Program-made: the position numbers and the translations under genes
In this document: positions 40,612 through 60,738 of the stretch, one piece after another
Layout: each line of letters starts with the position of its first letter
How positions within the stretch are numbered: the first letter of the stretch is position 1
IMG/VR virus record: IMGVR_UViG_3300025875_000006
Coordinates: 25,614 to 89,613 of that record
Direction: 5' to 3' (one strand)
DNA: 64,000 nucleotides
DNA from: a virus
Taxonomy: Duplodnaviria > Caudoviricetes
The notes under the pieces: generated by a model
Databases searched by the model: none
What the model saw: the letters and a program-made list of their open reading frames with translations, nothing else
What the model was told of the DNA's origin: nothing

Positions 40612-42219
40612 GTGTCAACCGCCTTCGCCGAGGCACTGCCGTCCGGCGACCTCTCGCTGGAGCAGCAGGTCGCCCTGCTCAGCGAGGACGAGCAGGAAGC
40701 GCTGCTGGCGGACCTGGACCTGGACCTGCTCCCCTGGGACTGGGACTGGACGGCGCGGCCGTCGCAGAAGCTGCCCATCGAGCCCGTCGGCCAGGACGCC
40801 GACTGGGTGATGGCCCTGCTGAACGCCGGTCGTGGCTTCGGCAAGACCCGCTCGGGCACCGAGACGATCCGCGAGCTGGACGAGCGCTGGCACAGCCTGG
40901 GCCGCGACCCCGGCCAGCCGCTGCGCCTGGCCCTGCTGGGCCGCACGGCGGCCGACGTCCGGGACACGATGCTCCAGGGCCCGTCGGGCCTGCTGAACAT
41001 CTACCCGCCGTCCCTCCAGGACCAGGTGGAGTGGATCAGCAGCCACCGCCGTGTCAACCTGCCGGGCGGCGGCTTCTGCATCTGCTTCAGCGCCGAGGAG
41101 CCCGACCAGCTGCGTGGCCCGGCGTTCCACTTCGGCTGGGCCGACGAGATCGCGGCCTACAAGCAGGTCCGGGGCGAGGGTGAGCTGGACGCCTTCAGCA
41201 ACCTCCGGATGGCCGTCCGCCTCGGGCTGCTGCCGCAGATCATCGCTACGACCACCCCGAAGCGGGTGAAGCTGCTCCGCCAGCTGATCGAGGAGATCAA
41301 GGCCAACCCGGAGAAGATGATCCTCCGGACCGGCCGCACGACGGACAACGTCCACCTATCGGCCAGCTACCTGGCCACGCTGGAGTCGCTGTACGCCGGG
41401 ACGACGCTGGGCGCGCAGGAGCTGAACGGCGAGATGCTGGACGCCGTCCAGGGCGCGACGGTGGACGCCGACACCCTGGACGACCACCGGGTGCAGAAGC
41501 TGCCGCACGTGGACACCCGCTGGGCCCGCGTCGTCGCGGTGGACCCGTCGGTGGCCGAGCGCCCGAACGACGAGTGCGGCATCACCGTGATCTACGCGCC
41601 GCTGACCTTCCCCATCCTCAACCGGCACGCCTACGTCGTGGACGACCGGAGCCTGAAGGCGAGCCCGACCGTCTGGGGCGACGAGGTGATCAAGGCGGCC
41701 GTGAAGCACAAGGCCGTCGTCGTGGTCGAGAACAACCAGGGCGGCGCGCTGGTGCGCCGGATGCTGAAGGAGCGCGCGGCGGCGGCCAACGTGCCCGTGC
41801 CGACCATCCGCGAGGTCTGGTCGAGCAAGGCCAAGGCCGTCCGCGCGGAGCCCATCGGCGCGGCCTACCAGCGCGGCCGGGTGCACCACGTGACCAGCTT
41901 CCCCGACCTGGAGGACCAGCTGACCAGCTGGACGCCGGAGGACAAGGGCTACTCCCCCGACCGCCTGGACGCCCTGGTGCACGGGCTCTCCGCGCTGCTG
42001 TTCCCCGACGCGCTGGTCAAGGGCGGCGTCCCGGGGTCCGCGACGTCGCACTCCCCCGTCGGGACGCCGATGCCGCGCACCAGCCAGACCGTCGCCCGCC
42101 GGATGTCGGGCATCAAGGTGGACACCACGCGCGGCCGTGCGCGGCCCAGCGGCCTGGTCGTGCCCGGCTACCGTCCCGGCATCAGCGTCCCGCGCCGCAC
42201 CGTCGGAGGATCGCAGTGA
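40612..42219 (+). CDS. terL: terminase large subunit
   Basis: AGRGFGKTR Walker A, LRGP, WADE Walker B, VVAVDP nuclease motif, SPDRLDA. Confidence 0.95.
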   Translation: MSTAFAEALPSGDLSLEQQVALLSEDEQEALLADLDLDLLPWDWDWTARPSQKLPIEPVGQDADWVMALLNAGRGFGKTRSGTETIRELDERWHSLGRDPGQPLRLALLGRTAADVRDTMLQGPSGLLNIYPPSLQDQVEWISSHRRVNLPGGGFCICFSAEEPDQLRGPAFHFGWADEIAAYKQVRGEGELDAFSNLRMAVRLGLLPQIIATTTPKRVKLLRQLIEEIKANPEKMILRTGRTTDNVHLSASYLATLESLYAGTTLGAQELNGEMLDAVQGATVDADTLDDHRVQKLPHVDTRWARVVAVDPSVAERPNDECGITVIYAPLTFPILNRHAYVVDDRSLKASPTVWGDEVIKAAVKHKAVVVVENNQGGALVRRMLKERAAAANVPVPTIREVWSSKAKAVRAEPIGAAYQRGRVHHVTSFPDLEDQLTSWTPEDKGYSPDRLDALVHGLSALLFPDALVKGGVPGSATSHSPVGTPMPRTSQTVARRMSGIKVDTTRGRARPSGLVVPGYRPGISVPRRTVGGSQ

Positions 42220-42995
42220 CCGCCCCGCAGCAGCCCGCGCAGGAGCCGGTGCCGCCGCCACCGCCCCGCCAGTTCGCCGCGCAGGCCCAGGCCGTCGCCG
42301 CTGCGCAGGACGCCGAGATCAGCGCGGTCACCCCGGCCCTGGCGGCTTTCGTCACAGCGGTCCTGGCCTACGCCCGGACCGGCGGCCGGGTGGCCGGACT
42401 GCCCCTGACGGTGGCCAAGAAGATCGGCTACTACGGCGCGGTGGTCGCCGTGCTGTCGGCCATCGCCGACCGCGCGATGGACGAGCAGCGCACCTGGAGC
42501 GGGAAGCGCGCGGCCGAGGAGCTGTGGCTGGGCACGGACGTCGGACGCGAGGCCGGGGTGCAGGCGGGCCTGGCCGTGCTGGCGCACGCGGCCAAAGCCA
42601 TCGCCCGCGAGGCGCGCGTGGACGAGGCCACCGGGGGCTCCCCGGGTGTCTCCCTGCCGGGCGAGCCCTACGACCCGCAGGCGGCCGAGCACGCCAAGTC
42701 CTACTCCGACCCCGAGAAGATCGCGCTGCCGGTCGTGCAGAGCACCCGGCACGCCGCCCAGCTGGCCGCTGCCGCCGAGGCGGGCTGGACCCGGAAGACC
42801 TGGGTGGACAAGGGCGACGCCCGGGTGCGCGTCAACCACGCCTTCCTGGGCTCCAAGAACTACGAGTACCACGTCGTCGCGCTGGACGAGCCCTTCGTGA
42901 CGCTGGACGGCAACAAGCTCTGGTACCCGGGCGACACGAGCGCGCCGGTGCACGAGTGGATGCGCTGCCGCTGCTGGCTCCGCCTGTCCCGCTGA
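42216..42995 (+). CDS. MuF-like head morphogenesis protein
   Basis: KTWVDKGDARVRVNH...YPGD...CRC. Confidence 0.85.
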   Translation: MTAPQQPAQEPVPPPPPRQFAAQAQAVAAAQDAEISAVTPALAAFVTAVLAYARTGGRVAGLPLTVAKKIGYYGAVVAVLSAIADRAMDEQRTWSGKRAAEELWLGTDVGREAGVQAGLAVLAHAAKAIAREARVDEATGGSPGVSLPGEPYDPQAAEHAKSYSDPEKIALPVVQSTRHAAQLAAAAEAGWTRKTWVDKGDARVRVNHAFLGSKNYEYHVVALDEPFVTLDGNKLWYPGDTSAPVHEWMRCRCWLRLSR

Positions 42996-43028
42996 CATCT
43001 GGTTGACACGGCCTGCCAGACTGACGCG

Positions 43029-45114: not shown

Positions 45115-46767
45115 ATGGCGGGTGGGGTGCTTCGACGCAGCGGCCGGGCGACATCGACTCCGGAAGCGGTCACCGCATCCGCCAAGGTGGTCCAGATGCC
45201 CGAGCGCCGGGCCGCCACGGCCCGGTACAGCCAGCCGCGCGCGATCACCGCGTCGGCCGAGCAGGTGGACCTGGACCACGCCTGGCAGGAGCGGGCCAAG
45301 GGCGGGAGCTACCGGACCCGCCAGGAGGAGGCCTGGACCGGCTACGAGCGGGTCGGCGAGGTGCACTACGCCTTCAACCTGACCGCGAACATCCTCTCCC
45401 GCCTCCGGGTCTTCCCCGCCGCCATCCCGGAGAGCGACGAGGCCCCGCAGGGGGCCAAGGACGCCGCCGACAAGGGCCGCATCTCCTCCGACCTCGCGCG
45501 TGACGCCGAGGAGACCATGCGGGAGATCAGCGGCCCGACCTTCGCCGGGCTGGTGCGCAGCTTCGCGCTGAACGTCAACGTCCCCGGCGAGTGCTACATG
45601 GTCCGGCTGCCGGGCGAGGACCGGCAGGGCAACAAGACGGTCCAGTGGAAGGTGGTCTCCACCGACGAGCTGGTCTTCGACCAGCAGGGCGCGTGGCTCC
45701 GCCCGATCAAGGGCGAGACGACGCAGCAGAAGCGCCTGGCCAAGGGCACGTTCGTTGGCCGCATCTGGCGCGCGCACCCGCGCTACTCCGGCGAGCCCGA
45801 CAGCTCCATGATGGGCGTGGCCGACGCCGTCGAGGAGCTGCTGATCCTCCAGCGCCTGGTGCGCTCCGCGACCCGCACGCGGCTCAACAACGGCCTGCTG
45901 TTCCTGCCCGACGGCCTGCTGACCAACCGCATGTACATGGCCCTCCAGGGCCTGGCCGAGGACGGCCAGCCGCTCCCGCCCGAGGAGCTGGAGGCGATGG
46001 CCTCCGACCCGGGCAACCAGCTGGTCGCCGACATCATGCAGGCCATCGTCACGGCCATCTCCGACGAGGGCGACGCCGCTGCGGTGGCCCCGATCATGGT
46101 CACCGGTGACGGTGGCCTGGCCGAGCAGATCAAGCACATCACCTTCGAGCGCGGGTCCGACGACTGGCTGGTCAACCGGACCGAGCGCGCGCTGGAGCGC
46201 ATCCTCCAGGGGATCGACGTCCCCAAGGAGGTCGTGACCGGGCTGGCCAACGTCAAGTACAGCAACGCCCTGGTCATTGACGAGAACCTCTACAAGGCGA
46301 CCATCGAGCCGCTGGCGCTGGTCCTGGTGGACGCGCTGACCGAGGTCTTCCTGCGGCCTCTGTTGAGGGCCAAGGGCTATAGTGAGTCCGACATCAACCG
46401 GATCGTGGTCTGGTACGACCCGTCCGAGATCGTCACCCGTCCGAACCAGTCGGCCGACGCCAGCGACGGCTTCGACAAGTTCCTGGTCGGCCCGGGGGCC
46501 TGGCGGCGCGAGCACGGCTTCGGTGACGACGACGCGCCGTCCGAGGCCGAGCTGGGGATGATGCTGCTGACCAGCGGCACGCCGCTCCCCCAGGACGTCC
46601 AGATGGCCCTGCTCCAGTCGCTGCTGCCCACCGTGCTGGGCAAGCAGCGGGAGGAGAACCAGGAGGGCCAGCCGGTGCCGTTCCCGCAGAGCGCCACCGA
46701 CGTCCTGACGCCCCCGACCGCAGCCACGGCCATCAACGACGCAGGAACCGGAGCGACCGCCGCGTGA
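45115..46767 (+). CDS. portal protein
   Basis: 550 aa; AWTGYERVGEVHY, VPGECY, WRAHPRYSGEPDS, NNGLLFLP; located between TerL and the head genes. Confidence 0.88.
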   Translation: MAGGVLRRSGRATSTPEAVTASAKVVQMPERRAATARYSQPRAITASAEQVDLDHAWQERAKGGSYRTRQEEAWTGYERVGEVHYAFNLTANILSRLRVFPAAIPESDEAPQGAKDAADKGRISSDLARDAEETMREISGPTFAGLVRSFALNVNVPGECYMVRLPGEDRQGNKTVQWKVVSTDELVFDQQGAWLRPIKGETTQQKRLAKGTFVGRIWRAHPRYSGEPDSSMMGVADAVEELLILQRLVRSATRTRLNNGLLFLPDGLLTNRMYMALQGLAEDGQPLPPEELEAMASDPGNQLVADIMQAIVTAISDEGDAAAVAPIMVTGDGGLAEQIKHITFERGSDDWLVNRTERALERILQGIDVPKEVVTGLANVKYSNALVIDENLYKATIEPLALVLVDALTEVFLRPLLRAKGYSESDINRIVVWYDPSEIVTRPNQSADASDGFDKFLVGPGAWRREHGFGDDDAPSEAELGMMLLTSGTPLPQDVQMALLQSLLPTVLGKQREENQEGQPVPFPQSATDVLTPPTAATAINDAGTGATAA

Positions 46768-49700
46768 GCGACCAGCCGCAGTACACCACCGCGATCATCG
46801 CGGCCGTCCCCACCGCCGAGGACCCGGTCCACGAGATCGTCGCCGAGGACGCGCACGTCACGCTCCAGTTCCTGGGCGAGGCGGCCGACCTCTCGGACGA
46901 GCAGATCGAGGGCATCAAGACGACGCTGGGCCTGATCGCGGCCAACGTCTACGCCTTTCCGGTGGACGTCTCCGGCACCGCCGAGCTGGGCCAGGACAAG
47001 GCCCAGGTGCTGCTCATCCAGAGCACCATGCTGACCAAGATCAGGGAGACGCTGGGTCTGGACGAGTCGGTGTCAACCGCCGTCGCCAGCGTGGAGCAGT
47101 TCCCGAACTGGATTCCGCACCTGACCATGCAGTACGAGGGCGAGCAGCCCGACGTGGCCGCCTTCAAGGAGGTCACCATCGGCTCCCTGGAGCTGTGGCT
47201 GGCCGACGAGCACCTGGTCTTCCCGCTGGGCGAGTCCGCGCCGGTCACCGCCGCCGGGTACAAGACCTTCACCGAGCACCTGCACCCGCGCGGTGCCGAC
47301 GGCCGGTTCATCGAGAAGTTCGGCGTGGTCAAGTACCTGACCGCCAAGGGCTGGGCCTACGGCAAGGTCGAGGGCATCTACGAGGAGAACGACCAGGTCA
47401 AGCTGACGGTCACCCCGTCGGACCTGGCCGGGAAGACCCACGGCGAGTCCCTGGTCCTGAGCCCGAAGCAGGTCTACCGGGCCCCGAAGACCAAGGCCCA
47501 CCTGAAGACCTCCGACGTCGGCGTGACCAAGATCGGCGGCCAGGGCGGGTCCAACCCCGGCGGCATGTACCAGATGCCGTCGATCACGCCGCAGAGCCTG
47601 GACGACGCGGCGGCCAACGGCGTGGCCACCGAGAAGTTCTACGTCAAGAAGCCGAAGACCAAGAGCCACGGCGCGAACGAGGCGCTGGCCAACGCGCTGT
47701 ACGAGGAGGCCGGGGTCCCGGTCCCCGAGGTGGACTTCCACGCCGACGGCCAGCTCTACAGCAAGGTCATCGACGGCGAGCAGAACATGGCCGCCAAGCT
47801 GAAGGACCCGGAGTGGACCGACCAAGTCCGCCGGAACTTCGCCGTGGACGCCTGGCTGGGCAACCGCGACGTCTTCGGGATGACCTACGACAACATCCTG
47901 ACCGACGCCAACGGCGTGCCCTGGCGCATCGACAACGGCGGGGCGCTGCTCTACCGGGCGATGGGCGAGAAGAAGACCGACTTCGGCTCCAAGGTCAGCG
48001 AGCTGGACGCCTTCCGGCAGGGCAAGAAGGCCGCGATCTACGGGCCGGGCATGACCAAGGCCCAGGAGATCGACGGGGCCGAGCGCGTCGTGGCCATCAC
48101 GCCGCAGCGCATCGAGGAGATGGTCAGCGACGCCGGGCTCCCGGCCTCCCTGGCCGACACCCTGAAGGCCCGGCGGCTCTACCTGGCCAACTACTACGGC
48201 CTCCAGCTCCCGGAGTCCCAGAAGGCTGCCGAGGCCCAGGAGGGCTCCACCGCGCCCGTGGTGGACACCGCCGACCTGGCGGCCAACAAGGGCAAGCCCC
48301 GGGGCTGGTTCAAGACCACGCTGGCGCAGGCCGCGATGCTGCTCCAGGGCGGCGACAAGATCGAGCTGCCCGACGGCACGACCCGGGTCTTCGGCATCGA
48401 CGGCACCGGCAACGCGCTGTCCATCGTCGGCGAGCAGGCCAGCCTGCTGGGCTGGCAGCAGGAGTTCGGCCCGGCGGCCGAGGTCTACTTCCGCAAGACC
48501 GCCAAGGAGGCCGACGCCGTCCGGCCCGACCACGGCCAGAAGCTGAAGGGCAGCGACCTCGCGGCCCAGCGCTGGCACCGGGGCGACAAGATCAGCGCGC
48601 TCGGCATGGGTGCGCCGCTGAAGATCAAGGGCTGGAACGACAGCACCGGCGCGGTGCTGGTCGAGCACCCCGACGGCAGCCAGCAGCTGCTGGACACCTT
48701 CGGGGCCGACGGCAACACCACCTGGACCGTCGAGCGCTGGGACCCGCCAGCGGTTGACACGCTGGTCGAGGACATCCCGGCCACGCCGGTGCCGACCGTC
48801 TCCCAGCTGGAGGACGTCGTCACCAAGGCCAGCGAGCCCGAGGTCGAGGACGACCTGGTCAGCTACAAGGCCACCTCCGACGGTGCCTACGAGCAGGCCC
48901 CCGCCGTCGCGCCGGGCAAGACCGGCCAGGCCGCCGAGACCGAGGCCGCGCTGAAGGCCGACCTGGTGACCCCGCTGCCCACCGGCAGCGGCGCTCCCGC
49001 GCCGGGCAAGACCACCGCGCCCGGCGGCGCGAAGACGATGGTCGTGGGCGACGGCACCGAGGCCAGCACCGGCGACGCCGTGACCAGCAAGAAGGACGGC
49101 AAGACCTACACCTTCGTCAAGCCGAAGGGCCAGTACGCCGTCGTCACCGACCCCAACGGCGACGACCCCACGAAGCAGCTGCTGAAGCTGGCCAGCACCA
49201 TGACGCAGCCGGGCAAGCTCCCGGCCGGTGACCTGGACGTCGAGCTGCCGAAGACCGCCACCGGCGAGGTCCCGGCGCTGGGCATGATGGCGCAGGCCAA
49301 GGACGGCTGGGCGGGTGAGATCACGCTCATCAGCCCCGACGGCAAGTTCGTCTTCATCACCGACGCCAACGGCAAGCGGAAGCGGAAGTCCACCGGCACC
49401 GTCTCGATCACCGGCGGCGTCGTCCCGGCGGCCGAGCAGCCGCAGGTGGCCGTCGGGCCGGTCAAGGACTACGGCCCCGAGGTGTTGCAGCCCTGGAAGG
49501 GCGAGGAGAAGGCCACCGGCTGGCTGGCCGTGGACGACCTCACCGCTGCCCAGATGGTGCACGTCAGCTACGCGGACGGCACGCACGGCCTGGAGCCCTA
49601 CACCGGGCAGCCGCTGGGCTCGCTCCAGGTCAACAGCCAGGAGAAGGTCGCCGTCTTCGGCAGCCTGAAGGACTACCTCGGCCCCATCGCGCCGAGCCAG

Positions 49701-52700
49701 CTGGCGGCGGCCGGGAAGGCCGACAACGGGGCCACGACCTACCAGGTCATCTTCATGGGCAACGTCTTCTTCACCGACGGGACGACGGGCCCCAGCGGCG
49801 GCCTGGTGCTCTGGTACGCCGACGACAACGACGGCGACCTGCCCGGCACCGACGCCTTCGAGATGCCGCTGGGCGGCAAGCCGCTGATGACCATCATCGG
49901 CAGCGAGAAGGCCACCAGCGTGCCGCTGGTCATGCCCGAGATCGGCAGTGTGGCGTTCCAGGCCGCCGACGAGGTGACCTACGACGGCTTCGTCACGCCG
50001 ATCCTGTACGGCGACGAGGCCAAGACGCTGTCGGGCTGGAAGGGCCAGCTGTCCCCCGGCCAGGAGATCAGCCTGGACGGCCAGAACTGGCTGTCGATCA
50101 AGGCCGTCAGCCCCAGCGGCTCGGTCACGATCACCACCGGCAACGGCCAGGACGTCTTCATCAACCCCTGGTCCTCGGCCACCTACGTGGTCAAGGCCCC
50201 GGCGCTGGTGGACGGCGACGCTGCTCCGAGCCAGGCGGTTGACACCGACGACGACCTCGGCCCGGTCCTGCCGAAGAAGAAGGGCACGGACCTGGTCGCC
50301 GGGGACGTGATCAAGGACTTCGAGGGCAACATCTCGGTGATCAAGTTCATCGAGCCCGACGAGTCCTACGGCGACGGCACCAGCGCGCTGAGCGTGCACG
50401 CCTACGGCGGGCCGGTCGAGGGCGAGTACATGCCCGGCAGCGCTGAGCTGCCCTTCCTGGGCAACGCGGCCGAGGGCTTCGTCAGCCTGAAGCTGGCCGA
50501 CCAGGTGGAGCACTTCTACCCCGGCCTGAAGATCGAGGTCAGCTCCACCGAGCAGCTGACCGTGGCCAGCTACCCGAGCCTCCAGTTGGACACCGGCGGC
50601 TTCAAGTTCGCCGCGATGGTCAACGGCGACCCCGACGACCTGATCCTGGTGGACACGCACGAGGCCTTCGGTCCCGAGGCCGTGCTGCCCATGCAGTTCG
50701 CGCCCGGGTCGAGCGCGAGCGAGCTGGGCCTGGACATCGCCAAGCTGAACGAGCTGTTCAACCCGGCCCCGACGGTCGAGACCCCGCCGGACCACTACTG
50801 GCTGATGACCGAGCAGGGCCTGACTTTCGGCACTGCTCAGTACCCGATCTTCTTCAACGCCGCCGACTCGTCCTACTACCGCAGCGGTCCGAACGGCGTG
50901 GAGGGCTGGATCGACGGGAAGTGGGAGGCCGACGCCAGCCTCTCCGTCGTCGGCATGGACAAGGTCTGGGACGGCGCTCCCTTCCAGGGTGCGCTGGTCA
51001 TCCCGGAGAACACCGACCTGACGCTGTACGGCGCGGGCGCGGCGAACTACAAGCCGAAGCCGGGCGAGGCCGTCGCCATCGTCACGCTGGCGTCGGGCAA
51101 CGCCAGTGCGCTGGTGGTGTCCCCGTCGGGCAGCTTCGCGGGCGACCAGCACGTGATGACCATCGACGGCAGCGGCAACCTGCTGACGCCGGGCTACACC
51201 GCCGACTCCCTGCTGGGCGGCGGCAGCACGCTGAACGTCATCCACGACCCGTTCGCCTCCGAGGCGGCCGACAGCAAGCCGCGCGTGACCCACCAGGACG
51301 GCCCCCAGCCGCCCGCTGCCATCGGCCAGAAGCTCCAGAGCGTCGGGTACACCCCGAAGCCGGGCGAGACGCTGTGGGCCGTCCAGACCGAGGACGGCAA
51401 GACCGTCGTGCTGGTCAAGCAGCCCGACGGCAACTACCTGAAGCTGATGACCAGCGGCCAGCTGGGCTCCAAGGTCTGGACGACCGAGGAGCTGCTGGGC
51501 TGGGACGCGCAGCCCAACCTGTCGCACTTCACCTGGACCTACCTGCCCGAGGGTGCGGACGCGCCGACCGCCGTGCCAGGTCTGCCCGAGGGCTACGCGC
51601 CGTTCGTGCCGGGCGAGGGCCAGTCCCTGCTGAAGGTCACGCTGGCCAACGGCAAGACCAACGTCTACGTCCAGAAGCAGACGGGCGCGGGCTGGTACGA
51701 GCTGGGCCCCGACGGCTCGGTCAACGAGTCCTCCGACGCGGTGAAGTCCAACCACGTCGTCCAGCAGAAGCTGTCCACGGCCAGCAGCGGCAGCGCGGCG
51801 AAGTACGAGCTGCTGCACCCGCTCCCCGAGGGCCTGAAGCCCGCCGGGGAGAGCGCGGCCGTCCCGACGCTGAGCAACAAGAGCGGCGGCGAGTGGACGC
51901 CCGAGCCCGACCAGAAGGTCATGGCGCTCACGAGCTTCGACGGCGACACCGACCCCTGGTTCTTCTTCCAGGAGGCCGACACCGGCTGGTGGGTGCCCGC
52001 GCCGAACACCGAGGGCGCGTCCGGCAGCGGCGGCTTCAGCAACGAGCAGGCCCAGGAGTTCATGGCCGCCACCACGGCGGGCAAGTCCGGGTCGCAGTAC
52101 AAGCTGGTCTACGACGGGTCTGCCGCCGCCGCTGCGGGCCCGGCTCCGGCGTTCTCCGGCTACACCCCGAAGGCTGGGGAGGAGGTCTTCCAAGAGCCCA
52201 ACGGGTCGCACTGGGTGGTCAGCGGCAGCACCGTCTACCCGGTCAACGACGACGGCACCCTGTCCGAGGCCGGTTCGATGTCCAAGGCGGCCTGGGACGC
52301 CGACCCGGCCATCAGCTCCGGGGACGTCATCGCCAAGGTCTGGCCTGCTGCTGCCTCGGCGGTTGACACGCCGCCGAGCTTCGGCGGGTACACCCCGGTC
52401 ACCGGCGACCAGGTGCTCCAGGAGCCCGACGGCACATACTGGGTGAAGTCGGCGGCCGACAAGAAGTGGCACGCCGTCACCGTCCAGGGCACCCTCTCCC
52501 AGGCCTCGCTGGACGACGTCGAGTGGGGCCAGTCCCAGGTCGCCGGGACCACGCAGGCCTGGCCGGTGCCCGGCGGCTCGGTCAGCGACCCGGCCACGGG
52601 CGGGGTCTTCGAGGGCTACCAGAGCGCGCCGACCGACAACGTCCTCCAGGCGGTGGGCCCGGCCGGGTCGTTCCACCTGGTCAAGCTCGCTGGCAAGGGC

Positions 52701-55700
52701 ATCTGGCAGAAGGTGCTGCCCGGCGGCCAGCTGGAGGACGCCGAGGACGGCTTCAGCCAGGACTCCATCGAGTACGCCACCACCTCCCCGAACAACCCGG
52801 TCACGTTCACCGTGCTCCAGGGCAGCGTGAAGGCGGGCGCGGTCACCGAACCCGCCGAGCCGCTGGTGGCGCAGCCCTACGCCGGGGTCGCCTCGCTGAC
52901 CCTGCTGACCCTGCTGACCCCGGGGACGTACAACTTCGGCGGCTACACGCCGACCCCGGAGCAGACCAAGAAGATCGAGCAGTACGCCAGCGTGCTGCAC
53001 GTCGGTCAGTCGATCTACGCGCTGGAGGACAGCACCGGCGGCCTGCCGACCACCGGCGTTGTCCTGCGCAAGGCCGACGGCAGCTGGGAGACGATCTACG
53101 CCAACGGCGACAAGGTGCTGATCGCCGGGTCCGACCAGGGCATGGAGGAGTACGCCCAGTCGGCTGGCTGGACGATCCACAAGGCGCAGTTCACCGCCCC
53201 GATGGCGGCTCCGGCCGCGCCGAAGACCTACTCCGGCCCGACCATCTCCGGCTGGGCGGACCTGGGCATCCCGGACCCGGCCACCTTCGGCTACCTCGCC
53301 AGCCCCGGCGACGAGCTGCCGTCGGCCTCGGTGGGCGACTGGGTCTACATGCAGGGCAACGACCCGAGCGCGGGCATGTTCGGCAAGATCGCCGCCGTCC
53401 CCGGGGTCAACGACAACACCGTGGCGCTGTCGGACTACGTCATGGTCAAGGACGGCAAGACCGGGGCCCCGAAGTCCCCGGCCGTGCCGGTGCACATGCC
53501 CATCACCGCGATGGAGGGCTTCTACCTCTCCAGCTCGCAGGGCACCGGTGCCGCCCCGAACACGAACCCGGGCGTCACCTCTACCCCGGCGGCCCCGAGC
53601 ACGCCTGCGGCCAGCGCCCCCAGCGCCCCGCAGGCGGCCTCTCCGGCCGCTCCGGTGGGTCCGCAGTACCCCGGGGCCCAGAAGCCGAGCCAGGAGGACA
53701 TCAACGCCTGGGGCGGTGCGCTGACCAAGGACGGCTACATCCCCTCGCCGGGGATGTTCGTCTCGGGCAAGGGCCCGATGACCGGCAAGATCGTCTCCGT
53801 CTCCAAGGACAAGACCAAGGCCGTCGTGCTGAAGGCCGACGGGACGAAGACGACGCGCCTGATCGAGGCCATCAAGACCGACAAGTCGGCCAACTACAGC
53901 GCCTACGCGGCCCCGGCCACGCTGAAGGACATCCCGCAGGGGATGCCGCTGGCGGTTGACAGCGTCGCCGAGGTGCTGGCCAAGACCCCGCAGGACGGCA
54001 AGTTCCGCGCCATCCTCTCGGCGCACCCCGGCGTGAGCCACGGCCAGATGACCGTGACCAAGGCGACCGGCCCGTCCGGCAAGGTCTACAGCCGGGTGCA
54101 CATGACCCTGACCCCGGCGCAGCGCGAGCAGCTGATGAGCCTGCTGGCGGGCGTGGGGGAGAAGGGCGACTGGGCGACCAGCTCCAAGTCCTCCGAGCAG
54201 GTCGCCATCGGCGACCAGCTGCCCATGCGGAAGTCCTCCACGGACAACCCGGACGGCACGCCGCGCTGGAAGGTGGACCCGTCCCAGGTGCCGCCGACCC
54301 ACAAGGTCACCGGCGTGGCCGACGACCCGTCGGGCTCCGGCGTCAAGATCGTCACGATGGCCAACATCCAGACCGGCGAGGTCATCACCAGCCGCTTCCA
54401 CCCCGGCAAGCCGCTGACGACCTATGCCTGGGACCCGAACAAGCCGAAGAAGGTGGCCCCCGGGGCCTTCAGCATCGGCGAGACGGCCAAGGCGATGGGC
54501 TGGGCGCTGGCCAACGACGGTGGCATCTCGGCGGCCAAGAACGGCGCGGGCGACGCCCAGCTCTACAACGAGCCCGGCAGCTCGGTCACGAAGTCGGCGT
54601 TCCAGCACTCCAGCACCAGCTGGCAGACGCTGCGCAACGTCAGCGAGGACGGCGTGGTCATCGAGCTGGTGGACCCGAAGGGGTCGGACAACAAGTCCAC
54701 CACCGGCACGACGGTCATCTCCGTCCCCGAGGGCCTGGACGAGAAGGCCCTGGGCGCGGCGCTGAGCAAGCTGGGCGTGGACTACTCGCCGATGACGCAG
54801 GACAGCGCGAAGGACAACGTGCGCGGGATGCTGCGCACCCTGCTGAGCCTGGACATGAGCGACGTGGACACGGCCAAGGGCTGGAGCGACGACAAGCTGT
54901 TCACGCAGGCCGGGAAGACGATGGGCATCACCGACCTGGGCTGGCACGACGTGCTGGTCGGGGTGGACGAGTCCACCGGCACCCCGGCGTACTTCTGGTC
55001 CGACCGGGCGCGCAACGCGCTGGCCGCGAAGTCCAAGGTCAACGTGATCTACCGGTCGGCCAACAGCGCCGACGCGGCTCAGATCGTGTCAACCGTGAAG
55101 TACGGGTCGGCCAGCTCCATCCTGAAGCGCACCGCCGGGATGCTGGACGGCACCGGCTCCACCGGTTCCGGTGCTTCCTGGAGCACGGACAACGGCAACC
55201 ACGCCGGGCACGGGTCCTACGCCTCCGCCGGGGTGCACTCCAAGCTGCCCAGCGGCAACAACCAGGCCAGCTACAAGCACAGCGGGATGATGGTCTACCA
55301 CCGCCCCGAGGCCGTCCTGGGCCGGATCATGGACTACCGGACCGGCACCGGGGACGTCTACGGCAAGGGCAAGGGCTCCGGCTCGGACCACCTGGCCTAC
55401 GCCACGTCGCTGTCCTCGGTGACGGACTTCTTCCTGGGCGGCGGGCTCCCGACCGAGGCCGTCGGCTTCATCGCGGTCAGCGACCAGAGCGAGCGGGCCA
55501 AGGCCATCGAGAAGCTGAAGGCCGACGGCTACAGCCACATCAACGGCCGCCCGGTCGAGGAGATCGTCATCCTGAAGTCGCAGGCCCAGAACATGAGCCC
55601 GAACGACCTGCCGCCGGTCACGCTGCCCAGCAACGCCCGGCCGATCCTGGACCTGCCGACCTCCTACGGCGCGGCTCCGTCCGCCGCCGATGCCACCGTC

Positions 55701-55730
55701 GTTGCCGCCGCCGAGGAGACCGCCGCGTGA
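46764..55730 (+). CDS. giant multidomain (polyvalent) virion-associated protein: 2H phosphoesterase, HipA/PI3K-like kinase, SH3/KOW-like repeats, possible ART-like C-terminus
   Basis: HVT and HLT (2H pair); YVK..NE.LA...DAWLGNRD..DN..RIDNGG kinase motifs; repeated Y.P..G(E/D) modules; GTGA coupling to the portal gene. Confidence 0.85.
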   Translation: MSDQPQYTTAIIAAVPTAEDPVHEIVAEDAHVTLQFLGEAADLSDEQIEGIKTTLGLIAANVYAFPVDVSGTAELGQDKAQVLLIQSTMLTKIRETLGLDESVSTAVASVEQFPNWIPHLTMQYEGEQPDVAAFKEVTIGSLELWLADEHLVFPLGESAPVTAAGYKTFTEHLHPRGADGRFIEKFGVVKYLTAKGWAYGKVEGIYEENDQVKLTVTPSDLAGKTHGESLVLSPKQVYRAPKTKAHLKTSDVGVTKIGGQGGSNPGGMYQMPSITPQSLDDAAANGVATEKFYVKKPKTKSHGANEALANALYEEAGVPVPEVDFHADGQLYSKVIDGEQNMAAKLKDPEWTDQVRRNFAVDAWLGNRDVFGMTYDNILTDANGVPWRIDNGGALLYRAMGEKKTDFGSKVSELDAFRQGKKAAIYGPGMTKAQEIDGAERVVAITPQRIEEMVSDAGLPASLADTLKARRLYLANYYGLQLPESQKAAEAQEGSTAPVVDTADLAANKGKPRGWFKTTLAQAAMLLQGGDKIELPDGTTRVFGIDGTGNALSIVGEQASLLGWQQEFGPAAEVYFRKTAKEADAVRPDHGQKLKGSDLAAQRWHRGDKISALGMGAPLKIKGWNDSTGAVLVEHPDGSQQLLDTFGADGNTTWTVERWDPPAVDTLVEDIPATPVPTVSQLEDVVTKASEPEVEDDLVSYKATSDGAYEQAPAVAPGKTGQAAETEAALKADLVTPLPTGSGAPAPGKTTAPGGAKTMVVGDGTEASTGDAVTSKKDGKTYTFVKPKGQYAVVTDPNGDDPTKQLLKLASTMTQPGKLPAGDLDVELPKTATGEVPALGMMAQAKDGWAGEITLISPDGKFVFITDANGKRKRKSTGTVSITGGVVPAAEQPQVAVGPVKDYGPEVLQPWKGEEKATGWLAVDDLTAAQMVHVSYADGTHGLEPYTGQPLGSLQVNSQEKVAVFGSLKDYLGPIAPSQLAAAGKADNGATTYQVIFMGNVFFTDGTTGPSGGLVLWYADDNDGDLPGTDAFEMPLGGKPLMTIIGSEKATSVPLVMPEIGSVAFQAADEVTYDGFVTPILYGDEAKTLSGWKGQLSPGQEISLDGQNWLSIKAVSPSGSVTITTGNGQDVFINPWSSATYVVKAPALVDGDAAPSQAVDTDDDLGPVLPKKKGTDLVAGDVIKDFEGNISVIKFIEPDESYGDGTSALSVHAYGGPVEGEYMPGSAELPFLGNAAEGFVSLKLADQVEHFYPGLKIEVSSTEQLTVASYPSLQLDTGGFKFAAMVNGDPDDLILVDTHEAFGPEAVLPMQFAPGSSASELGLDIAKLNELFNPAPTVETPPDHYWLMTEQGLTFGTAQYPIFFNAADSSYYRSGPNGVEGWIDGKWEADASLSVVGMDKVWDGAPFQGALVIPENTDLTLYGAGAANYKPKPGEAVAIVTLASGNASALVVSPSGSFAGDQHVMTIDGSGNLLTPGYTADSLLGGGSTLNVIHDPFASEAADSKPRVTHQDGPQPPAAIGQKLQSVGYTPKPGETLWAVQTEDGKTVVLVKQPDGNYLKLMTSGQLGSKVWTTEELLGWDAQPNLSHFTWTYLPEGADAPTAVPGLPEGYAPFVPGEGQSLLKVTLANGKTNVYVQKQTGAGWYELGPDGSVNESSDAVKSNHVVQQKLSTASSGSAAKYELLHPLPEGLKPAGESAAVPTLSNKSGGEWTPEPDQKVMALTSFDGDTDPWFFFQEADTGWWVPAPNTEGASGSGGFSNEQAQEFMAATTAGKSGSQYKLVYDGSAAAAAGPAPAFSGYTPKAGEEVFQEPNGSHWVVSGSTVYPVNDDGTLSEAGSMSKAAWDADPAISSGDVIAKVWPAAASAVDTPPSFGGYTPVTGDQVLQEPDGTYWVKSAADKKWHAVTVQGTLSQASLDDVEWGQSQVAGTTQAWPVPGGSVSDPATGGVFEGYQSAPTDNVLQAVGPAGSFHLVKLAGKGIWQKVLPGGQLEDAEDGFSQDSIEYATTSPNNPVTFTVLQGSVKAGAVTEPAEPLVAQPYAGVASLTLLTLLTPGTYNFGGYTPTPEQTKKIEQYASVLHVGQSIYALEDSTGGLPTTGVVLRKADGSWETIYANGDKVLIAGSDQGMEEYAQSAGWTIHKAQFTAPMAAPAAPKTYSGPTISGWADLGIPDPATFGYLASPGDELPSASVGDWVYMQGNDPSAGMFGKIAAVPGVNDNTVALSDYVMVKDGKTGAPKSPAVPVHMPITAMEGFYLSSSQGTGAAPNTNPGVTSTPAAPSTPAASAPSAPQAASPAAPVGPQYPGAQKPSQEDINAWGGALTKDGYIPSPGMFVSGKGPMTGKIVSVSKDKTKAVVLKADGTKTTRLIEAIKTDKSANYSAYAAPATLKDIPQGMPLAVDSVAEVLAKTPQDGKFRAILSAHPGVSHGQMTVTKATGPSGKVYSRVHMTLTPAQREQLMSLLAGVGEKGDWATSSKSSEQVAIGDQLPMRKSSTDNPDGTPRWKVDPSQVPPTHKVTGVADDPSGSGVKIVTMANIQTGEVITSRFHPGKPLTTYAWDPNKPKKVAPGAFSIGETAKAMGWALANDGGISAAKNGAGDAQLYNEPGSSVTKSAFQHSSTSWQTLRNVSEDGVVIELVDPKGSDNKSTTGTTVISVPEGLDEKALGAALSKLGVDYSPMTQDSAKDNVRGMLRTLLSLDMSDVDTAKGWSDDKLFTQAGKTMGITDLGWHDVLVGVDESTGTPAYFWSDRARNALAAKSKVNVIYRSANSADAAQIVSTVKYGSASSILKRTAGMLDGTGSTGSGASWSTDNGNHAGHGSYASAGVHSKLPSGNNQASYKHSGMMVYHRPEAVLGRIMDYRTGTGDVYGKGKGSGSDHLAYATSLSSVTDFFLGGGLPTEAVGFIAVSDQSERAKAIEKLKADGYSHINGRPVEEIVILKSQAQNMSPNDLPPVTLPSNARPILDLPTSYGAAPSAADATVVAAAEETAA

Positions 55731-56593
55731 CCGCTCCAGTGCAGTTCCCCAACCCGGCCATGCTGGAGACCACGTTCCGGCAGGTCACTGACCCGGTGAC
55801 CGAGACCGAGGAGGACGTCACCTACCTCCTCCCGGTCGGCGGGCTGGCCTACGGGGCGGCCGGTGGAGGCATCTCTGTCGGCTGGGACTCCGAGGACCAC
55901 ATCCGGGGTGTCATCCTGTCCTCCGTCGAGGACCAGGGCGACTGGATCGTGGGCACGGGGCCCGAGGGCCAGGTCTACCGGTTCCGCGACCTGGACCCGC
56001 ACGACGCAGTGACGATGTCCCCGGCTGGGGTCCCCCAGCCGCTGATGGTGGTGCAGGCCGAAGTGATCCGAGGGGGAGTCTTGGCGCAGTCTCTGGACGC
56101 CGTGGTGGCGGCCGACAACACGGTGGCCACGCTCATGCTGGAGACCGGCATGGGGACCTTCGTCCGCTACGCCGGGGACTGGCAGCTGCTGGCCGACGAC
56201 AGCGGCGCGCTGGAGGACTGCTCGCTGGTCGCCGTCGGGGCCGGAGCCCTGAGCGTCTGGGACGCGGCCGACTCCGCCAGCCAGACCATCTCGGTCTTCG
56301 ACCTGCCGCTGAAGACCGGCAACGGCGACGAGGTCATCGACCCCGAGGCCGAGCCGGACGTCGAGACGGCGGCGGCCATCGCGGCCAGCGGCGTCTCCAT
56401 CCCGCAGGTCAGCCGGGTGGAAGACCTGGACCTGGCCATCCGCTACGCCAACACCCACCCGACCGCCCGCTGGTACGTGACCAAGCGCGCGAGCGCGCTG
56501 GCCGCGTCGGCCCGCATCCCGGCGCACTGGAACGTCGTCCCGGCGGTGAACCCGGCCCCTTTCTCCCTGACGCACCAGGAGCAGGAGATGTAG
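55727..56593 (+). CDS. head-associated hypothetical protein
   Basis: FVRYAGDW module also seen in the protease; C-terminal DLDLAIRYA...YVTKRASAL...IPAHW. Confidence 0.7.
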   Translation: MTAPVQFPNPAMLETTFRQVTDPVTETEEDVTYLLPVGGLAYGAAGGGISVGWDSEDHIRGVILSSVEDQGDWIVGTGPEGQVYRFRDLDPHDAVTMSPAGVPQPLMVVQAEVIRGGVLAQSLDAVVAADNTVATLMLETGMGTFVRYAGDWQLLADDSGALEDCSLVAVGAGALSVWDAADSASQTISVFDLPLKTGNGDEVIDPEAEPDVETAAAIAASGVSIPQVSRVEDLDLAIRYANTHPTARWYVTKRASALAASARIPAHWNVVPAVNPAPFSLTHQEQEM

Positions 56594-56646: not shown

Positions 56647-58134
56647 ATGGTCGCCGCTGGGCAGCAGCCGCCGTCGGGCTTCTTCCCGGCGCTGATCGCG
56701 GCTGCTCGTGTCAGCGGGATGCTGGATGATCCGGCTGTGCTGACGGCCTCCAAGTGGCAGGACTGGCTGCACCCGCGCGGCAAGGACGGGCGCTTCATCG
56801 AGAAGCAGAGCTTCGTCAACGTCTTCGCCAACCCGAACGCCCTGCTGAGCGACCGCACGGCCGTCCGCCGCCGGGCGCGGATCAACGAGCTGCGGCCCGA
56901 GGGGGCCTACGTCAGCTACCAGGACATCGAGGGCAACCCGATCCCGGCCGACCCCGAGGCGGGCTTCCCCGACCTGATCCCGGTGGACGACTTGTCCACG
57001 AAGGTCAGCACCGCGCCCACGGCCATCGCGCACCTCCAGCCGGGCGAGAGCGCGGCCAAGGAGGTCGCCGACGCGCTGGTCCCGGCCATGACCCGGGAGA
57101 GCTGGGAGGCCGAGATCGCGGCGCTGTCCGCGTCGCTGGCCGCCGACCGGCCGGAGCAGCTGGTCACCGTGTCAACCGGCCAGGGCGAGGTCACGCCCGA
57201 GGAGTTCCAGGAGCACCAGGCCTACATCAGCTGGGTCAACACCATCGGCATGAAGGGCCCCGGCCGCTCGCTGGCGATGGACGGCGCGTTCAAGGACAGC
57301 TTCGGGCTCTGGTCGGAGGAGATGCAGCAGGTCTTCGACGCCCTGGTGGACGACGCCTACAACGACCTGACCCGGAACCAGACGAAGCCGCGCAACCGCC
57401 GGGCCATCATGCTCGGTGGCCTGCCCGGTGCCGGGAAGTCCTCCACGCTGGAGGCGATGACGAAGGCCGGGGTCTTCCGCGAGGACGAGTGGATCATCGC
57501 CAACCCGGACTACTTCAAGGACGTCATCATCGCCAAGGGGCTGGCCCCGCAGCTGTCCGGGCTCACCCCGGCGGAGACGGCCAGCTTCATCCACGAGGCC
57601 AGCTCCGAGATGAACCACATGCTGGAGCAGCTGCTGACCGTCGAGGGCTTCAACGTCATCTTCGACATCACGATGGGCGGCCGGATGCGGCCGGGCGAGA
57701 AGTCCTGGACCGAGCGCATCGTGGACCGGCTGGAGGCGCTGGACTACAGCACCGACGGCCTGTTCGTGGACGTGCCGCCGACCACCAGCCGCCAGCGCGC
57801 GCAGTCCCGGCACATGGCCGGGCTGAACACGCTGCGGACCGGCCAGTCGGCGCGGCCCAACGACCCCGAGCTGAAGAACGGCGGCCGGACGGTGCCTGAC
57901 GCCGTGATCAACGCGGCCGAGTTCGGCGAGAACGACCCCGACGCCGAGTCCTACTCCAGCCACAACGCCCGGAACTTCGCAGCGCTGAAGGAGCAGTTCG
58001 CCCGCTGGGCGGTCTACGACAACTCCGGCGACGCGCCCTACCTGGCCGACAGCAGTGGCGGGACCGACCCGGACCCGACCATGCTGCCGGGCTTCTACGA
58101 GGCCGTGCAGGCAGAGGAGGCGCAGGCCGCGTGA
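56647..58134 (+). CDS. zeta-toxin-like P-loop kinase with N-terminal HPRG tag
   Basis: AIMLGGLPGAGKSS, IANPDYFK, FIHEASS, VIFDITM, GRTVP. Confidence 0.85.
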   Translation: MVAAGQQPPSGFFPALIAAARVSGMLDDPAVLTASKWQDWLHPRGKDGRFIEKQSFVNVFANPNALLSDRTAVRRRARINELRPEGAYVSYQDIEGNPIPADPEAGFPDLIPVDDLSTKVSTAPTAIAHLQPGESAAKEVADALVPAMTRESWEAEIAALSASLAADRPEQLVTVSTGQGEVTPEEFQEHQAYISWVNTIGMKGPGRSLAMDGAFKDSFGLWSEEMQQVFDALVDDAYNDLTRNQTKPRNRRAIMLGGLPGAGKSSTLEAMTKAGVFREDEWIIANPDYFKDVIIAKGLAPQLSGLTPAETASFIHEASSEMNHMLEQLLTVEGFNVIFDITMGGRMRPGEKSWTERIVDRLEALDYSTDGLFVDVPPTTSRQRAQSRHMAGLNTLRTGQSARPNDPELKNGGRTVPDAVINAAEFGENDPDAESYSSHNARNFAALKEQFARWAVYDNSGDAPYLADSSGGTDPDPTMLPGFYEAVQAEEAQAA

Positions 58135-58461: not shown

Positions 58462-60738
58462 ATGCCACCGCTGCTGATGGCCGGATTCGACCGGCAGCAC
58501 CTGCCCACCCGGAGCATCCGGGACAAGGCCCGAGGGGTGGACGAGCCCCTGGCCCTGAAGCTCCAGACCGGCCAGGTCAGGGCCTGGGACTTGCTCTCCC
58601 TCCAGGCAAGTGCTGTTCCTGGCGCGGCCGAGTGGGCGTCCAAGACCCTGGACGCCATTGTGGCCAGCGCGGCCGAGCGCATCCGGCAGCCGCTGGACTG
58701 CGAGGAGTGCACCGACCTGGGCTTCTACGGCCTGGTGTCGGCCGCCGACGCCGACGTGCTCACCGGCCTGCTCCGGCGTGAGAGCGACGGCGGCTACGAG
58801 CAGCTGACCGCGTCGGGCACCTGGACCCCCTACGAGACGCGCTACGACCAGCACGTCGAGGTGCTGAACCGCGAGCTGGCCGCCGACCTGGCCGAGGCCG
58901 TCACGGCCGGTGCCTCCGGCCTGGCCCGCCGGTACTTCTGGCCGCAGGCCTTCCTGCCGCCGGAGACGATGATCGCCGCCGCCCCGGCCCCCGAGCTGGC
59001 AGCCGACCAGGGCACGGCCCGGCCGACCGCCGGGCCCGACGACGGCTGGCGCGAGTACGCCGTCGTGGACGACCTGGACCCCGGCGCGGTGCTGGAGCTG
59101 ATCCGGCTGCGGCCCGGCCCCGAGCTGGTCGCCTACCGCAACGGCGTCTGGTCCGAGGCCCCCGAGCTGCTGAGCGACCTCCAGGGCGTCCAGCCGCCGC
59201 CGCTGGTCGAGCTGGACCAGCCGCAGCTGGAGACGGTCCTGGCCCAGATCGACCAGGCCGGTGCACCTGAAGCTGGGGTCGAGGCTCCGGCGGCCGACCC
59301 TGGAGCCGAGGTCGAGACCGTGGCCGCCGCCGGTGCGGCGCTGGTGGCCGACGCTCCGCTGACCGTGAGCCCGGACCCGCGCGCCGAGAAGCTGCGCCGG
59401 TACTGGACCACTGGCAAGGGCGCGCTGAAGATCAGGTGGGGGACGCCCGGGGACTGGACCCGGTGCTACCGCCAGCTGCGCAAGCACATGGGCGTGCGGG
59501 CCAAGGGCTACTGCCAGAACCTGCACAAGCGGTCCACCGGCCAGTGGGCCGGTGCCCGTGGGAACCGGGGCGGGGCGGTGGCTGCCTCCGGCGGCCGGAC
59601 CGTCCGCGAGGCCCTGTCGATGGAGGCCGCGCTCGTGGCCGCCGTGTCAACCGGGTCGTGGTTCGGCCCGTCAGGAGGAGATGGCGTGACCAGCGCACTG
59701 AAGGACGGCATCTACAGCGAGGGCGGCAGCGACATCGCGCTGCTGAAGACCCTCACGGCCGGTGGCTTCCCGGTGGCACCCCCGGAGGACTGGTTCGGCG
59801 ACCCGGGCCTGGACCAGCCGACCCCGCTCACGGTGGACGACGACGGCCGGGTCTACGGCCACATCGCCACCTTCGACGTCGCGCACATCGGCCTGCCCGG
59901 CCAGGTGCGCGCGCCGAAGTCCAAGTCCGACTACGCCTACTTCAAGACCGGCGAGCTGGTGACCGCCAGCGGCTCCCGGGTCAACGTCGGCCAGCTGACC
60001 CTGGCCGGTGGCCACGCCAGCCTCCAGGCCGACGCAGCGGCGGCCGTGGCCCACTACGACAACACCGGCAGCGCGGTGGCCGACGTCAACGTGGGCGAGG
60101 ACCGCTTCGGCATCTGGGTGGCCGGTGGCCTCCGGCCCGAGGTCACCCCGAGCCAGCTCCGCACGCTGCGCGCCAGCGCGCCGTCGGGCGACTGGCGGCC
60201 GATCAACGGCAACCTGGAGCTGGTGGCCTGCTGCCAGGTCAACGTCCCCGGCTTCCCGACCGTCCGGGCGCGCGTGGCTGGTGGCGCGATCACCGCGATG
60301 GTGGCGGCCGGTGCTCCCCCGCTGTTCTCCCGCCGCCTGGCGCTGATGGCCGACGCGGCCAACGCCGAGCGGATCGCGGCGCTGGAGTCCGTGGTCTTCA
60401 ACGCCGAGCCGGGGCTGCTGGCCGACGGCGGCGAGGGTGGTGCCGAGGGCGGTGCACCGGCGGCCGAGGGCGGTTCCGTCACGGACGGTGCCCCGGCCGA
60501 GCAGGCGGCCGAGGGCGGCGAGGAGCAGGTGTCCGAGGCCGTCCAGCGCGCCCGTGCGCTGGCCGACGAGCGCCGGGCGGCCAAGGAGGCCGAGGCGGCG
60601 GCGACCGAGGGCGAGCCCCAGGTGACCGGCACCGAGGAGCCCGCCGAGGAGTCGCCGGAGGCCGTGTTGGCCAAGCTCCGCGCCCGGGTGCACGGTGCCC
60701 AGGCCAAGGAGCCCGTGGCGGCTGGCGCGACCGTCTGA
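58462..60738 (+). CDS. capsid maturation protease (multidomain)
   Basis: KLRRYW..GKGALKIRWGTPGDWTRC domain; RVYGHIA...AGGHA...HYDNT...GEDRFGIWVAG...SGDWR protease core; scaffold-like acidic tail. Confidence 0.82.
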   Translation: MPPLLMAGFDRQHLPTRSIRDKARGVDEPLALKLQTGQVRAWDLLSLQASAVPGAAEWASKTLDAIVASAAERIRQPLDCEECTDLGFYGLVSAADADVLTGLLRRESDGGYEQLTASGTWTPYETRYDQHVEVLNRELAADLAEAVTAGASGLARRYFWPQAFLPPETMIAAAPAPELAADQGTARPTAGPDDGWREYAVVDDLDPGAVLELIRLRPGPELVAYRNGVWSEAPELLSDLQGVQPPPLVELDQPQLETVLAQIDQAGAPEAGVEAPAADPGAEVETVAAAGAALVADAPLTVSPDPRAEKLRRYWTTGKGALKIRWGTPGDWTRCYRQLRKHMGVRAKGYCQNLHKRSTGQWAGARGNRGGAVAASGGRTVREALSMEAALVAAVSTGSWFGPSGGDGVTSALKDGIYSEGGSDIALLKTLTAGGFPVAPPEDWFGDPGLDQPTPLTVDDDGRVYGHIATFDVAHIGLPGQVRAPKSKSDYAYFKTGELVTASGSRVNVGQLTLAGGHASLQADAAAAVAHYDNTGSAVADVNVGEDRFGIWVAGGLRPEVTPSQLRTLRASAPSGDWRPINGNLELVACCQVNVPGFPTVRARVAGGAITAMVAAGAPPLFSRRLALMADAANAERIAALESVVFNAEPGLLADGGEGGAEGGAPAAEGGSVTDGAPAEQAAEGGEEQVSEAVQRARALADERRAAKEAEAAATEGEPQVTGTEEPAEESPEAVLAKLRARVHGAQAKEPVAAGATV

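Follow-up and report, generated by a model that had tools for sequence, protein, structure and literature searches.

A cysteine-free 2988-residue phage protein, encoded directly after the portal gene, with 2H, kinase-like and ADP-ribosyltransferase-like folds

What is a protein of 2988 residues doing directly behind the portal gene of a phage? The question is raised by virus record IMGVR_UViG_3300025875_000006, which is 89,613 bp long and complete by CheckV. We analyzed its final 64 kb (64,000 nucleotides, positions 25,614 to 89,613 of the record, hereafter the window), in which the giant gene occupies positions 46764-55730 on the + strand and takes up 10% of the genome. An earlier note, made from the letters of the window, had read the product as a polyvalent protein with a 2H phosphoesterase domain, a kinase-like domain, a long array of small beta modules and, tentatively, a domain resembling ADP-ribosyltransferases (ARTs). 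Our models and comparisons point to the same three enzyme folds, and we think it fairly probable that the protein is a packaged and injected multi-enzyme cargo of the phage polyvalent type, with packaging and injection inferred from context.

The giant open reading frame (ORF) that the earlier note had proposed is real: 46764-55730 (+) is one uninterrupted frame of 2988 codons, the G+C content at third codon positions (GC3) is 0.98 in a window of ~70% G+C, and the N-terminus is conserved in relatives. We found ~25 full-length relatives of 2600-3400 aa in metagenomes, at 36-56% identity, on contigs that reach 94 kb (several are 75-94 kb long); one relative starts with an N-terminal peptidoglycan-binding domain. 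When we checked the translation, every motif that the note had named was at its place, and the domain limits that it had drawn agreed with those of the folded models. The fold calls for all three enzymes, the tentative ART included, were likewise supported by AlphaFold models and structure comparison. The parts of the protein are as follows.

46764..55730, + strand: 2988-aa polyvalent protein (P0001), cysteine-free (ORF, family, composition)
46785..47234, + strand: 2H phosphoesterase domain, residues 8-157 (HVT at 31-33, HLT at 118-120, modeled fold)
47280..47318, + strand: tag LHPRGADGRFIEK, residues 173-185 (motif search, alignment to the zeta-toxin-domain protein)
47319..47483, + strand: small SH3-like beta-barrel, residues ~186-240 (strands at 188-239 in the model)
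47493..48206, + strand: atypical protein-kinase-like domain, residues 244-481 (modeled fold, conserved residues)
48234..53663, + strand: family-specific middle part with Pro/Ala-rich linkers, residues 491-2300 (profile self-matches, motif list)
53664..55001, + strand: first part of the conserved C-terminal block, residues 2301-2746, with KOW/Tudor-like and EF-P-domain-I-like barrels
55002..55598, + strand: ART-fold domain closest to DarT, residues 2747-2945 (AlphaFold model, structure search)

To describe the N-terminal enzymes, we modeled the first 500 residues with AlphaFold from a 23-sequence alignment and obtained a predicted local distance difference test (pLDDT) score of 85. Residues 8-157 combine the 2H fold with the two H-x-T/S motifs of the 2H superfamily, and the family consensus retains these as HxTL and PHxTL. 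In a structure search with the N-terminal model, the ns2 protein of mouse hepatitis virus (MHV) and a poxvirus cyclic GMP-AMP (cGAMP) phosphodiesterase scored 9.5, and Acb1 scored 9.2. At the sequence level, the giant protein as a single query gave weak 2H matches among solved structures, and the family profile gave 2H matches as well. PF13563 scored 23.1 bits against the giant protein, under its cut-off of 27, and 41.6, 29.8 and 30.4 bits, above threshold, in relatives P0017, P0018 and P0024; TIGR02258 reached an expect value (E) of 9e-6, short of its cut-off. This 2H domain was all that a scan of the giant protein with NCBIfam returned.

The earlier note had connected the domain with Acb1, the nuclease that counters cyclic-oligonucleotide-based antiphage signaling systems (CBASS). 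The 2H fold and both HxT motifs stand, but the Acb1 family model, PF23474, did not match the domain, which on modeling is closer to LigT-type enzymes than to Acb1, and an Acb1-like anti-CBASS role is not specifically supported. LigT/2',3'-cyclic phosphodiesterases and the viral 2H enzymes (rotavirus VP3, MHV ns2 and Acb1) are alike in the 2H fold and the two HxT motifs, and the viral enzymes break down 2'-5' oligoadenylate or cyclic oligonucleotides. A homologous 2H domain lies within gp25 of Arthrobacter phage Beagle, encoded directly after the portal and annotated as a "capsid maturation protease and MuF-like fusion".

The second enzyme-like domain, residues 244-481, carries the motifs GSNPGG (262-267), YVK (293-295), NEALA (305-309), DAWLGNRD (362-369), DN (376-377) and RIDNGG (388-393). 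G262, S263, N264, G266, K295, E306, D369, D376, N377 and D390 are shared by all of the 23 aligned sequences or by at least 90% of them. The model is bilobal, as in atypical kinases of the PI3/4K-CotH-HipA type, and the full set of ATP-binding and catalytic residues is present: a Gly-rich loop, a lysine, a glutamate, a catalytic Asp/Asn and a metal-binding Asp. The role of each residue is a putative one, assigned by order along the predicted secondary structure. The IDNG motif, to which D390 belongs here, also occurs in type II phosphatidylinositol 4-kinases (PI4-kinases). The likening of this domain to HipA and PI3/4-kinases was correct, as judged from the fold model and the conserved catalytic-type residues, and it holds structurally for CtkA (3akj), CotH (5jda), PI4KIIalpha (4pla), MavQ (7m7a), actin-fragmin kinase (1cja) and HipA (4pu3). 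Unlike in these atypical kinases, from CtkA to HipA, the domain here belongs to a phage protein and follows a tag and an SH3-like barrel. No kinase family, HipA_C, PI3_PI4_kinase and CotH included, matched in Pfam at E up to 1 or in NCBIfam at E up to 0.1.

The kinase-like domain is not confined to this family. It recurs in many other giant proteins together with ART (PF03496), Nudix or MuF domains, and it is also found in phages of Gordonia, Pseudomonas, Escherichia and others; a literature search for such a kinase type in polyvalent proteins returned nothing relevant. In relatives P0021, P0022, P0023, P0025, P0026, P0028 and P0049 an insert of ~70-200 residues splits the domain in the loop that joins the Gly-rich hairpin to the conserved-lysine strand, which corresponds to residues ~277-288 (low pLDDT) of the query. 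The metagenome-assembled Actinomycetia phage DSL-LC01 (locus L010; OQ999401.1, 52800-62669) encodes a 3289-aa "hypothetical protein" between portal and capsid maturation protease, with the same kinase-like domain in mid-protein.

Apart from the kinase, no part of the protein is better conserved than the C-terminal 688 residues, which gave a compact multi-domain model with a pLDDT of 84 and a predicted template modeling score (pTM) of 0.79. The ART-like motifs VIYRS (2761-2765) and NGRPVEEIV (2927-2935) lie in its last domain. Foldseek searches of PDB and BFVD with the C-terminal model gave nothing usable, just small KOW-like barrels, and the ART likeness emerged only in an exhaustive VIA structure search. 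There, DarT was nearest, and the proteins ranked after it were solely ART-superfamily members (Tpt1, OspC3/CopC and the Rhs toxin TreX). The modeled domain has an ART fold, and the tentative call is thus supported at the level of the fold. By any sequence model, it is not an Alt-type R-S-E enzyme. The ESM Atlas offered weak leads (DUF3841, DUF3626 and OspC, at 0.89-0.90), DarT was absent from the matches of the family profile to PDB sequences, and a Pfam scan of ten short members of this domain family found nothing. DarT (7omu, 7omv, 8baq, 7yk3; PMC11543638) has the nearest fold but no sequence similarity to the domain. It also differs in setting: DarT is the toxin of a toxin-antitoxin pair, whereas the ART-like domain is part of a 2988-aa protein in a virion context, and no DarG/NADAR-type partner was recognized for it.

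A profile of the ART-like domain found 704 cluster representatives among 1.84 billion. The members are mostly giant proteins; the domain ends no more than 60 residues from the C-terminus in 59 of the 61 long new members, and the kinase domain is also present in 52 of 135 new members. The candidate active-site residues are R2764, S2805, D2809, D2864, D2888, E2898 and E2932. Conservation in distant members is 95% for D2809, 96% for D2864 and 82% for E2932, with S2805, D2809 and D2864 all within 89-96%. Position 2888, an aspartate in the giant protein, is acidic in 94% (E in 82%, D in 13%). At position 2764, in the first strand, the giant protein has R where distant members have either H or R, and the close family carries a glutamate or an aspartate at 2898. 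To judge from this conservation, the polar set looks like an active site; a simple offset from E152 of DarT1 (PMC11543638) would make D2888 or E2898 the catalytic acid.

Between the 2H domain and the kinase-like domain, a linker of low model confidence (residues 159-167) precedes a short motif, LHPRG.DGRFIEK, that is conserved among the relatives of the giant protein. In a six-frame translation of the whole genome this motif occurs exactly twice: in the giant protein and in a nearby zeta-toxin-domain protein, where the second copy, LHPRGKDGRFIEK, spans residues 41-53 (window 56767-56805). A local alignment of the tag region of the giant protein with the zeta protein gave an E of 1e-5. The SH3-like barrel follows the tag, and the Src-family proteins that Foldseek matched to the N-terminal model may reflect this barrel plus the kinase. 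In Gordonia phage Forza, gp78, the gene directly after the portal, starts with the tag and the kinase.

The remainder of the protein is the middle part, where conservation is lowest and the similarities among small barrel-like modules are weaker. Profile self-matches defined a repeat array at residues ~1428-2160 (window 51045-53243), for example 1760-1839 against 1859-1916 (E 1e-17) and 1840-1919 against 1524-1570 (E 1.7e-9), and a GY-x-P/S motif opens five repeat units, as GYTP in four. SH3/KOW/Tudor-like barrels were modeled at 186-240, 2311-2378 and 2475-2555. The "long array of small beta modules" of the earlier note is borne out in part by these repeats and barrels, with residues 491-2300 analyzed as sequence. 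Against solved structures, the family profile also gave non-significant matches to designed beta-trefoils (profile positions ~1452-1568, E 0.07-0.4); we do not take the repeats for a trefoil.

How is the gene placed? The giant gene and its neighbors in the head module lie on the + strand in the order given below.

40612..42219, + strand: large terminase subunit, start of the head module (Pfam Terminase_6N E 3e-11, Terminase_6C E 6e-8; PHROG terminase)
42744..42977, + strand: weak MuF-like match in a separate ORF (42137-43006) after the terminase (PF04233, 13.6 bits, E 0.0055, below cut-off)
45115..46767, + strand: portal protein (phrog_776, E 1.6e-96)
55727..56593, + strand: 288-aa acidic ORF, candidate chaperone or immunity protein (GTGA overlap with the giant gene)
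56647..58134, + strand: 495-aa zeta-toxin-domain protein with the tag, cysteine-free (PF06414, E 4e-14)
58462..60738, + strand: 758-aa protein, head-maturation-protease domain at residues ~431-633, acidic tail rich in Ala/Glu (phrog_18402, E 1.6e-55)

The portal gene and the giant gene share the sequence GTGA (46764-46767), in which the TGA stop of the former runs into the GTG start of the latter, with GGAG 10 nt upstream of this start; a second GTGA likewise links the TGA stop of the giant gene with the GTG start of the 288-aa ORF. The position "between portal and protease" is right as such, but three ORFs intervene before the protease: the 288-aa ORF, the 495-aa zeta-toxin-domain protein and a 109-aa ORF. 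The order portal, giant gene, ~270-aa ORF was kept in every relative that we looked up, at 24-50% identity, and terminase, zeta protein and a large downstream head ORF were present wherever the relatives' loci extend far enough. Judged by sequence, this gene order is echoed in Gordonia and Arthrobacter phages.

Each of the seven relatives that we looked up, one of them without DNA, has a counterpart of the 288-aa ORF behind the giant gene, and in five this counterpart overlaps the end of that gene; the identity to the relatives is 23-47% (alignment A4). It matched no family in Pfam, PHROG or NCBIfam and nothing in the ESM Atlas. In MuF-toxin loci the immunity gene comes after the toxin gene (PMC11699363), as the 288-aa ORF comes after the giant gene, and by this analogy the ORF could encode an immunity protein or a chaperone. 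The zeta-toxin protein is a conserved neighbor of the giant gene in loci L002 and L003 and on the P0022 contig, and is 1205 aa long in one relative. It has a Walker A motif, and the tag lies near its N-terminus. The 758-aa protein is composite, with an N-terminal part of ~430 residues, in which a Cys-containing basic motif lies at ~335-355, and then the protease domain; its acidic tail could act as a scaffold.

Composition sets the giant protein apart: it has no cysteine in 2988 residues, against 0.74% cysteine in the other proteins of the phage (P ~2e-10). Cysteine is also absent from the zeta protein and from a 525-aa protein, a 1104-aa protein contains a single one, and the relatives of the giant protein have 0-4. 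The reading of the protein as capsid-loaded draws its support from this lack of cysteine together with the coupling to the portal, the conserved order of the head module, the tag shared with the zeta protein and the adjacency of homologous domains to portal or MuF in isolated actinophages. The earlier note had also proposed a capsid-loaded, injected polyvalent protein, and these features of context and of the relatives speak for it; its comparison with P1 DarA/DarB serves only as an analogy, and we found no evidence of similarity between those proteins and the giant protein.

Were the protein packaged, it would be synthesized late, coupled to the portal, along with the 288-aa partner and the tagged zeta-toxin protein. 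Loading into the procapsid would probably involve few copies, with the tag and/or the C-terminal ART-fold domain as likely loading elements, and the head protease may cleave at flexible linkers. The protein would then be ejected with the DNA through the tail as a cysteine-free chain of small, fast-refolding modules, and its three enzyme heads would act in the host ahead of phage gene expression. The LigT-like 2H head would have 2',3'-cyclic or 2'-5' phosphodiesters as its substrates, be it in RNA ends or in nucleotide signals, the CtkA/CotH/PI4KII/HipA-like head would phosphorylate a host target, and the DarT-like head would ADP-ribosylate nucleic acid or protein.

Several results weigh against this reading. 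Neither DarT (PF14487) nor ART-PolyVal (PF18760) matched at E up to 10, the former anywhere in the genome, and the catalytic residues of the ART-like domain are no more than candidates for the ART triad of H/R in strand 1, S/Y in strand 2 and a catalytic E/D/Q in strand 5. The fixed C-terminal place of this domain fits an anchoring or structural role equally as well as an effector. We detected neither MuF (PF04233) nor another known capsid-targeting domain in the giant protein, the weak match at 42744-42977 being the sole MuF signal of the genome, and residues 491-2300, ~60% of the protein, are without an assigned fold or function. On the MuF domain, a 235-aa gene of relative L002, equivalent to the ORF at 42137-43006, also gave a faint MuF match, and phage Forza has a small separate MuF gene, gp75, upstream of the portal (its gp80 is annotated as an ADP-ribosyltransferase). 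To judge from these sequences, this phage group seems to keep MuF in a gene separate from those of the cargo proteins.

Could the protein instead be mainly a structural or morphogenetic component of the head (an internal core, a scaffold-like protein or a replacement for a MuF-type portal-associated protein) whose ART-fold domain and tag are there for assembly and whose enzyme folds are accessory or degenerate? The gene does occupy the portal-adjacent slot, translationally coupled, and the ART-like domain stays at the extreme C-terminus over ~700 clusters whatever lies upstream; the strong conservation of the last 688 residues, second to the kinase, and the failure of every ART sequence model point the same way. 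We nevertheless regard such a role as unlikely, in that distant relatives conserve the 2H motifs and all catalytic positions of the kinase, the ART-like domain has a dense, active-site-like set of conserved polar residues, and a weak MuF-like ORF exists separately. Less likely still, in our view, is that the enzymes work late and unpackaged inside the producing cell, in RNA repair, in blocking late defense or in modification of phage or host nucleic acid, so that the place in the operon reflects timing. LigT-type 2H enzymes classically process RNA ends, phage 2H domains have also been linked to tRNA repair (PMC9503650), and packaging rests on context. That explanation is at odds with the absence of cysteine, a feature shared with the tail proteins of the phage, with the tag common to the neighboring zeta-toxin protein, and with the finding that other phages have these domains fused to, or encoded beside, portal, MuF or protease; a beads-on-a-string layout of 2988 residues would also be difficult to account for in a cytoplasmic enzyme.

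The long array of small modules, the lack of cysteine, the location in the head module and the one relative with a peptidoglycan-binding domain would also suit an ejected conduit that spans the envelope, as do the internal core proteins of T7, with the array as a DNA channel and the enzyme heads secondary. No transmembrane or lytic domain was detected in the giant protein, however, and the middle part is the least conserved, which is unexpected in a channel; we hold this explanation to be improbable. The packaged, injected cargo is the reading that we prefer.

This reading agrees with what has been published on polyvalent proteins as a class. Iyer, Burroughs, Anand, de Souza and Aravind (2017; PMC5512222) described phage polyvalent proteins that were predicted to be packaged in the head and injected. 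In that work and in Iyer et al. (2022; PMC9503650), head-associated 2H domains are proposed to degrade nucleotide signals or process RNA, and ARTs and kinases to modify host targets after injection. Like the giant protein, members of the class unite several unrelated effector-type enzymes in a single very long chain whose gene lies with the late or virion genes of a portal-terminase phage; such proteins are recognized by at least two unrelated effector-type domains in a virion gene context, and here three such folds lie in a terminase-portal-protease neighborhood. The domains listed for the class include 2H next to portal or MuF, ARTs, kinases and zeta-toxin kinases. What the earlier note concluded is thus the published standard hypothesis for the class, correctly applied.

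The giant protein also departs from the described class. The kinase in PMC5512222 is of the Ser/Thr/Tyr type, lacks the C-lobe and comes from phages of Verrucomicrobia and Bacteroidetes, whereas the domain here is complete, with a helical C-lobe. The ART-like domain is unmatched by the ART-PolyVal, DarT and Alt/VIP2 models, a MuF domain is absent, and the tag and the fixed C-terminal domain are undescribed in PMC5512222 and PMC9503650. Measured against these two papers and Pfam, the type of kinase, the C-terminal DarT-like family with its fixed position, the tag and the 288-aa partner appear new. T4 Alt, the N4 virion RNA polymerase (vRNAP), P1 DarB and MuF-fused toxins such as Bxa (PMC11699363) are large or enzymatic proteins that travel in the head and enter the host together with the DNA. 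Packaging has been demonstrated for those proteins, whereas the giant protein is known from its sequence; we found no sequence or domain homology between it and T4 Alt, N4 vRNAP, P1 DarB or MuF-fused toxins.

Polyvalent proteins are predicted to reach the host before any other phage protein, yet almost none has been studied at the bench. The giant protein presents three enzyme heads, each testable alone, plus a candidate loading tag and a conserved partner, and its isolated relatives (Forza gp78 and gp80, Beagle gp25) make virion proteomics and genetics feasible. The kinase and DarT-like families have no Pfam or NCBIfam model, yet both are common in uncultured and isolated actinophages. If packaging and activity hold true, a kinase and possibly a nucleic-acid ART would join the injected counter-defense proteins. 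A bolder proposal, which we put forward tentatively and consider somewhat doubtful, is that the tag, the kinase and an always-C-terminal DarT-like ART may together mark out a widespread but so far undescribed class of giant, cysteine-free capsid cargo (hundreds of clusters), with the tag as the general address label for the head, and that a nucleic-acid-directed ADP-ribosyltransferase and an atypical kinase are injected by the phage. In that event, the virus would turn DarT-type chemistry, known from host defense, to offensive use.

In the phage collection we found 874 relatives of the portal protein (494 from Mycobacterium, 197 from Gordonia and 131 from Microbacterium phages), nearly all of them from actinobacteriophages, and the host is therefore most likely an actinomycete. 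Elsewhere, the window encodes a replication module (a family A DNA polymerase, an SNF2 helicase, a PD-(D/E)XK nuclease, a Prim-Pol and a DUF3987 protein), a lysin with a peptidoglycan-binding domain and a beta-helix protein. The last of these, at 32124-34028, is a 634-aa right-handed, pectate-lyase-like beta-helix, probably a tailspike or depolymerase, and its 13 cysteines contrast with the cysteine-poor head and tail proteins of the phage.

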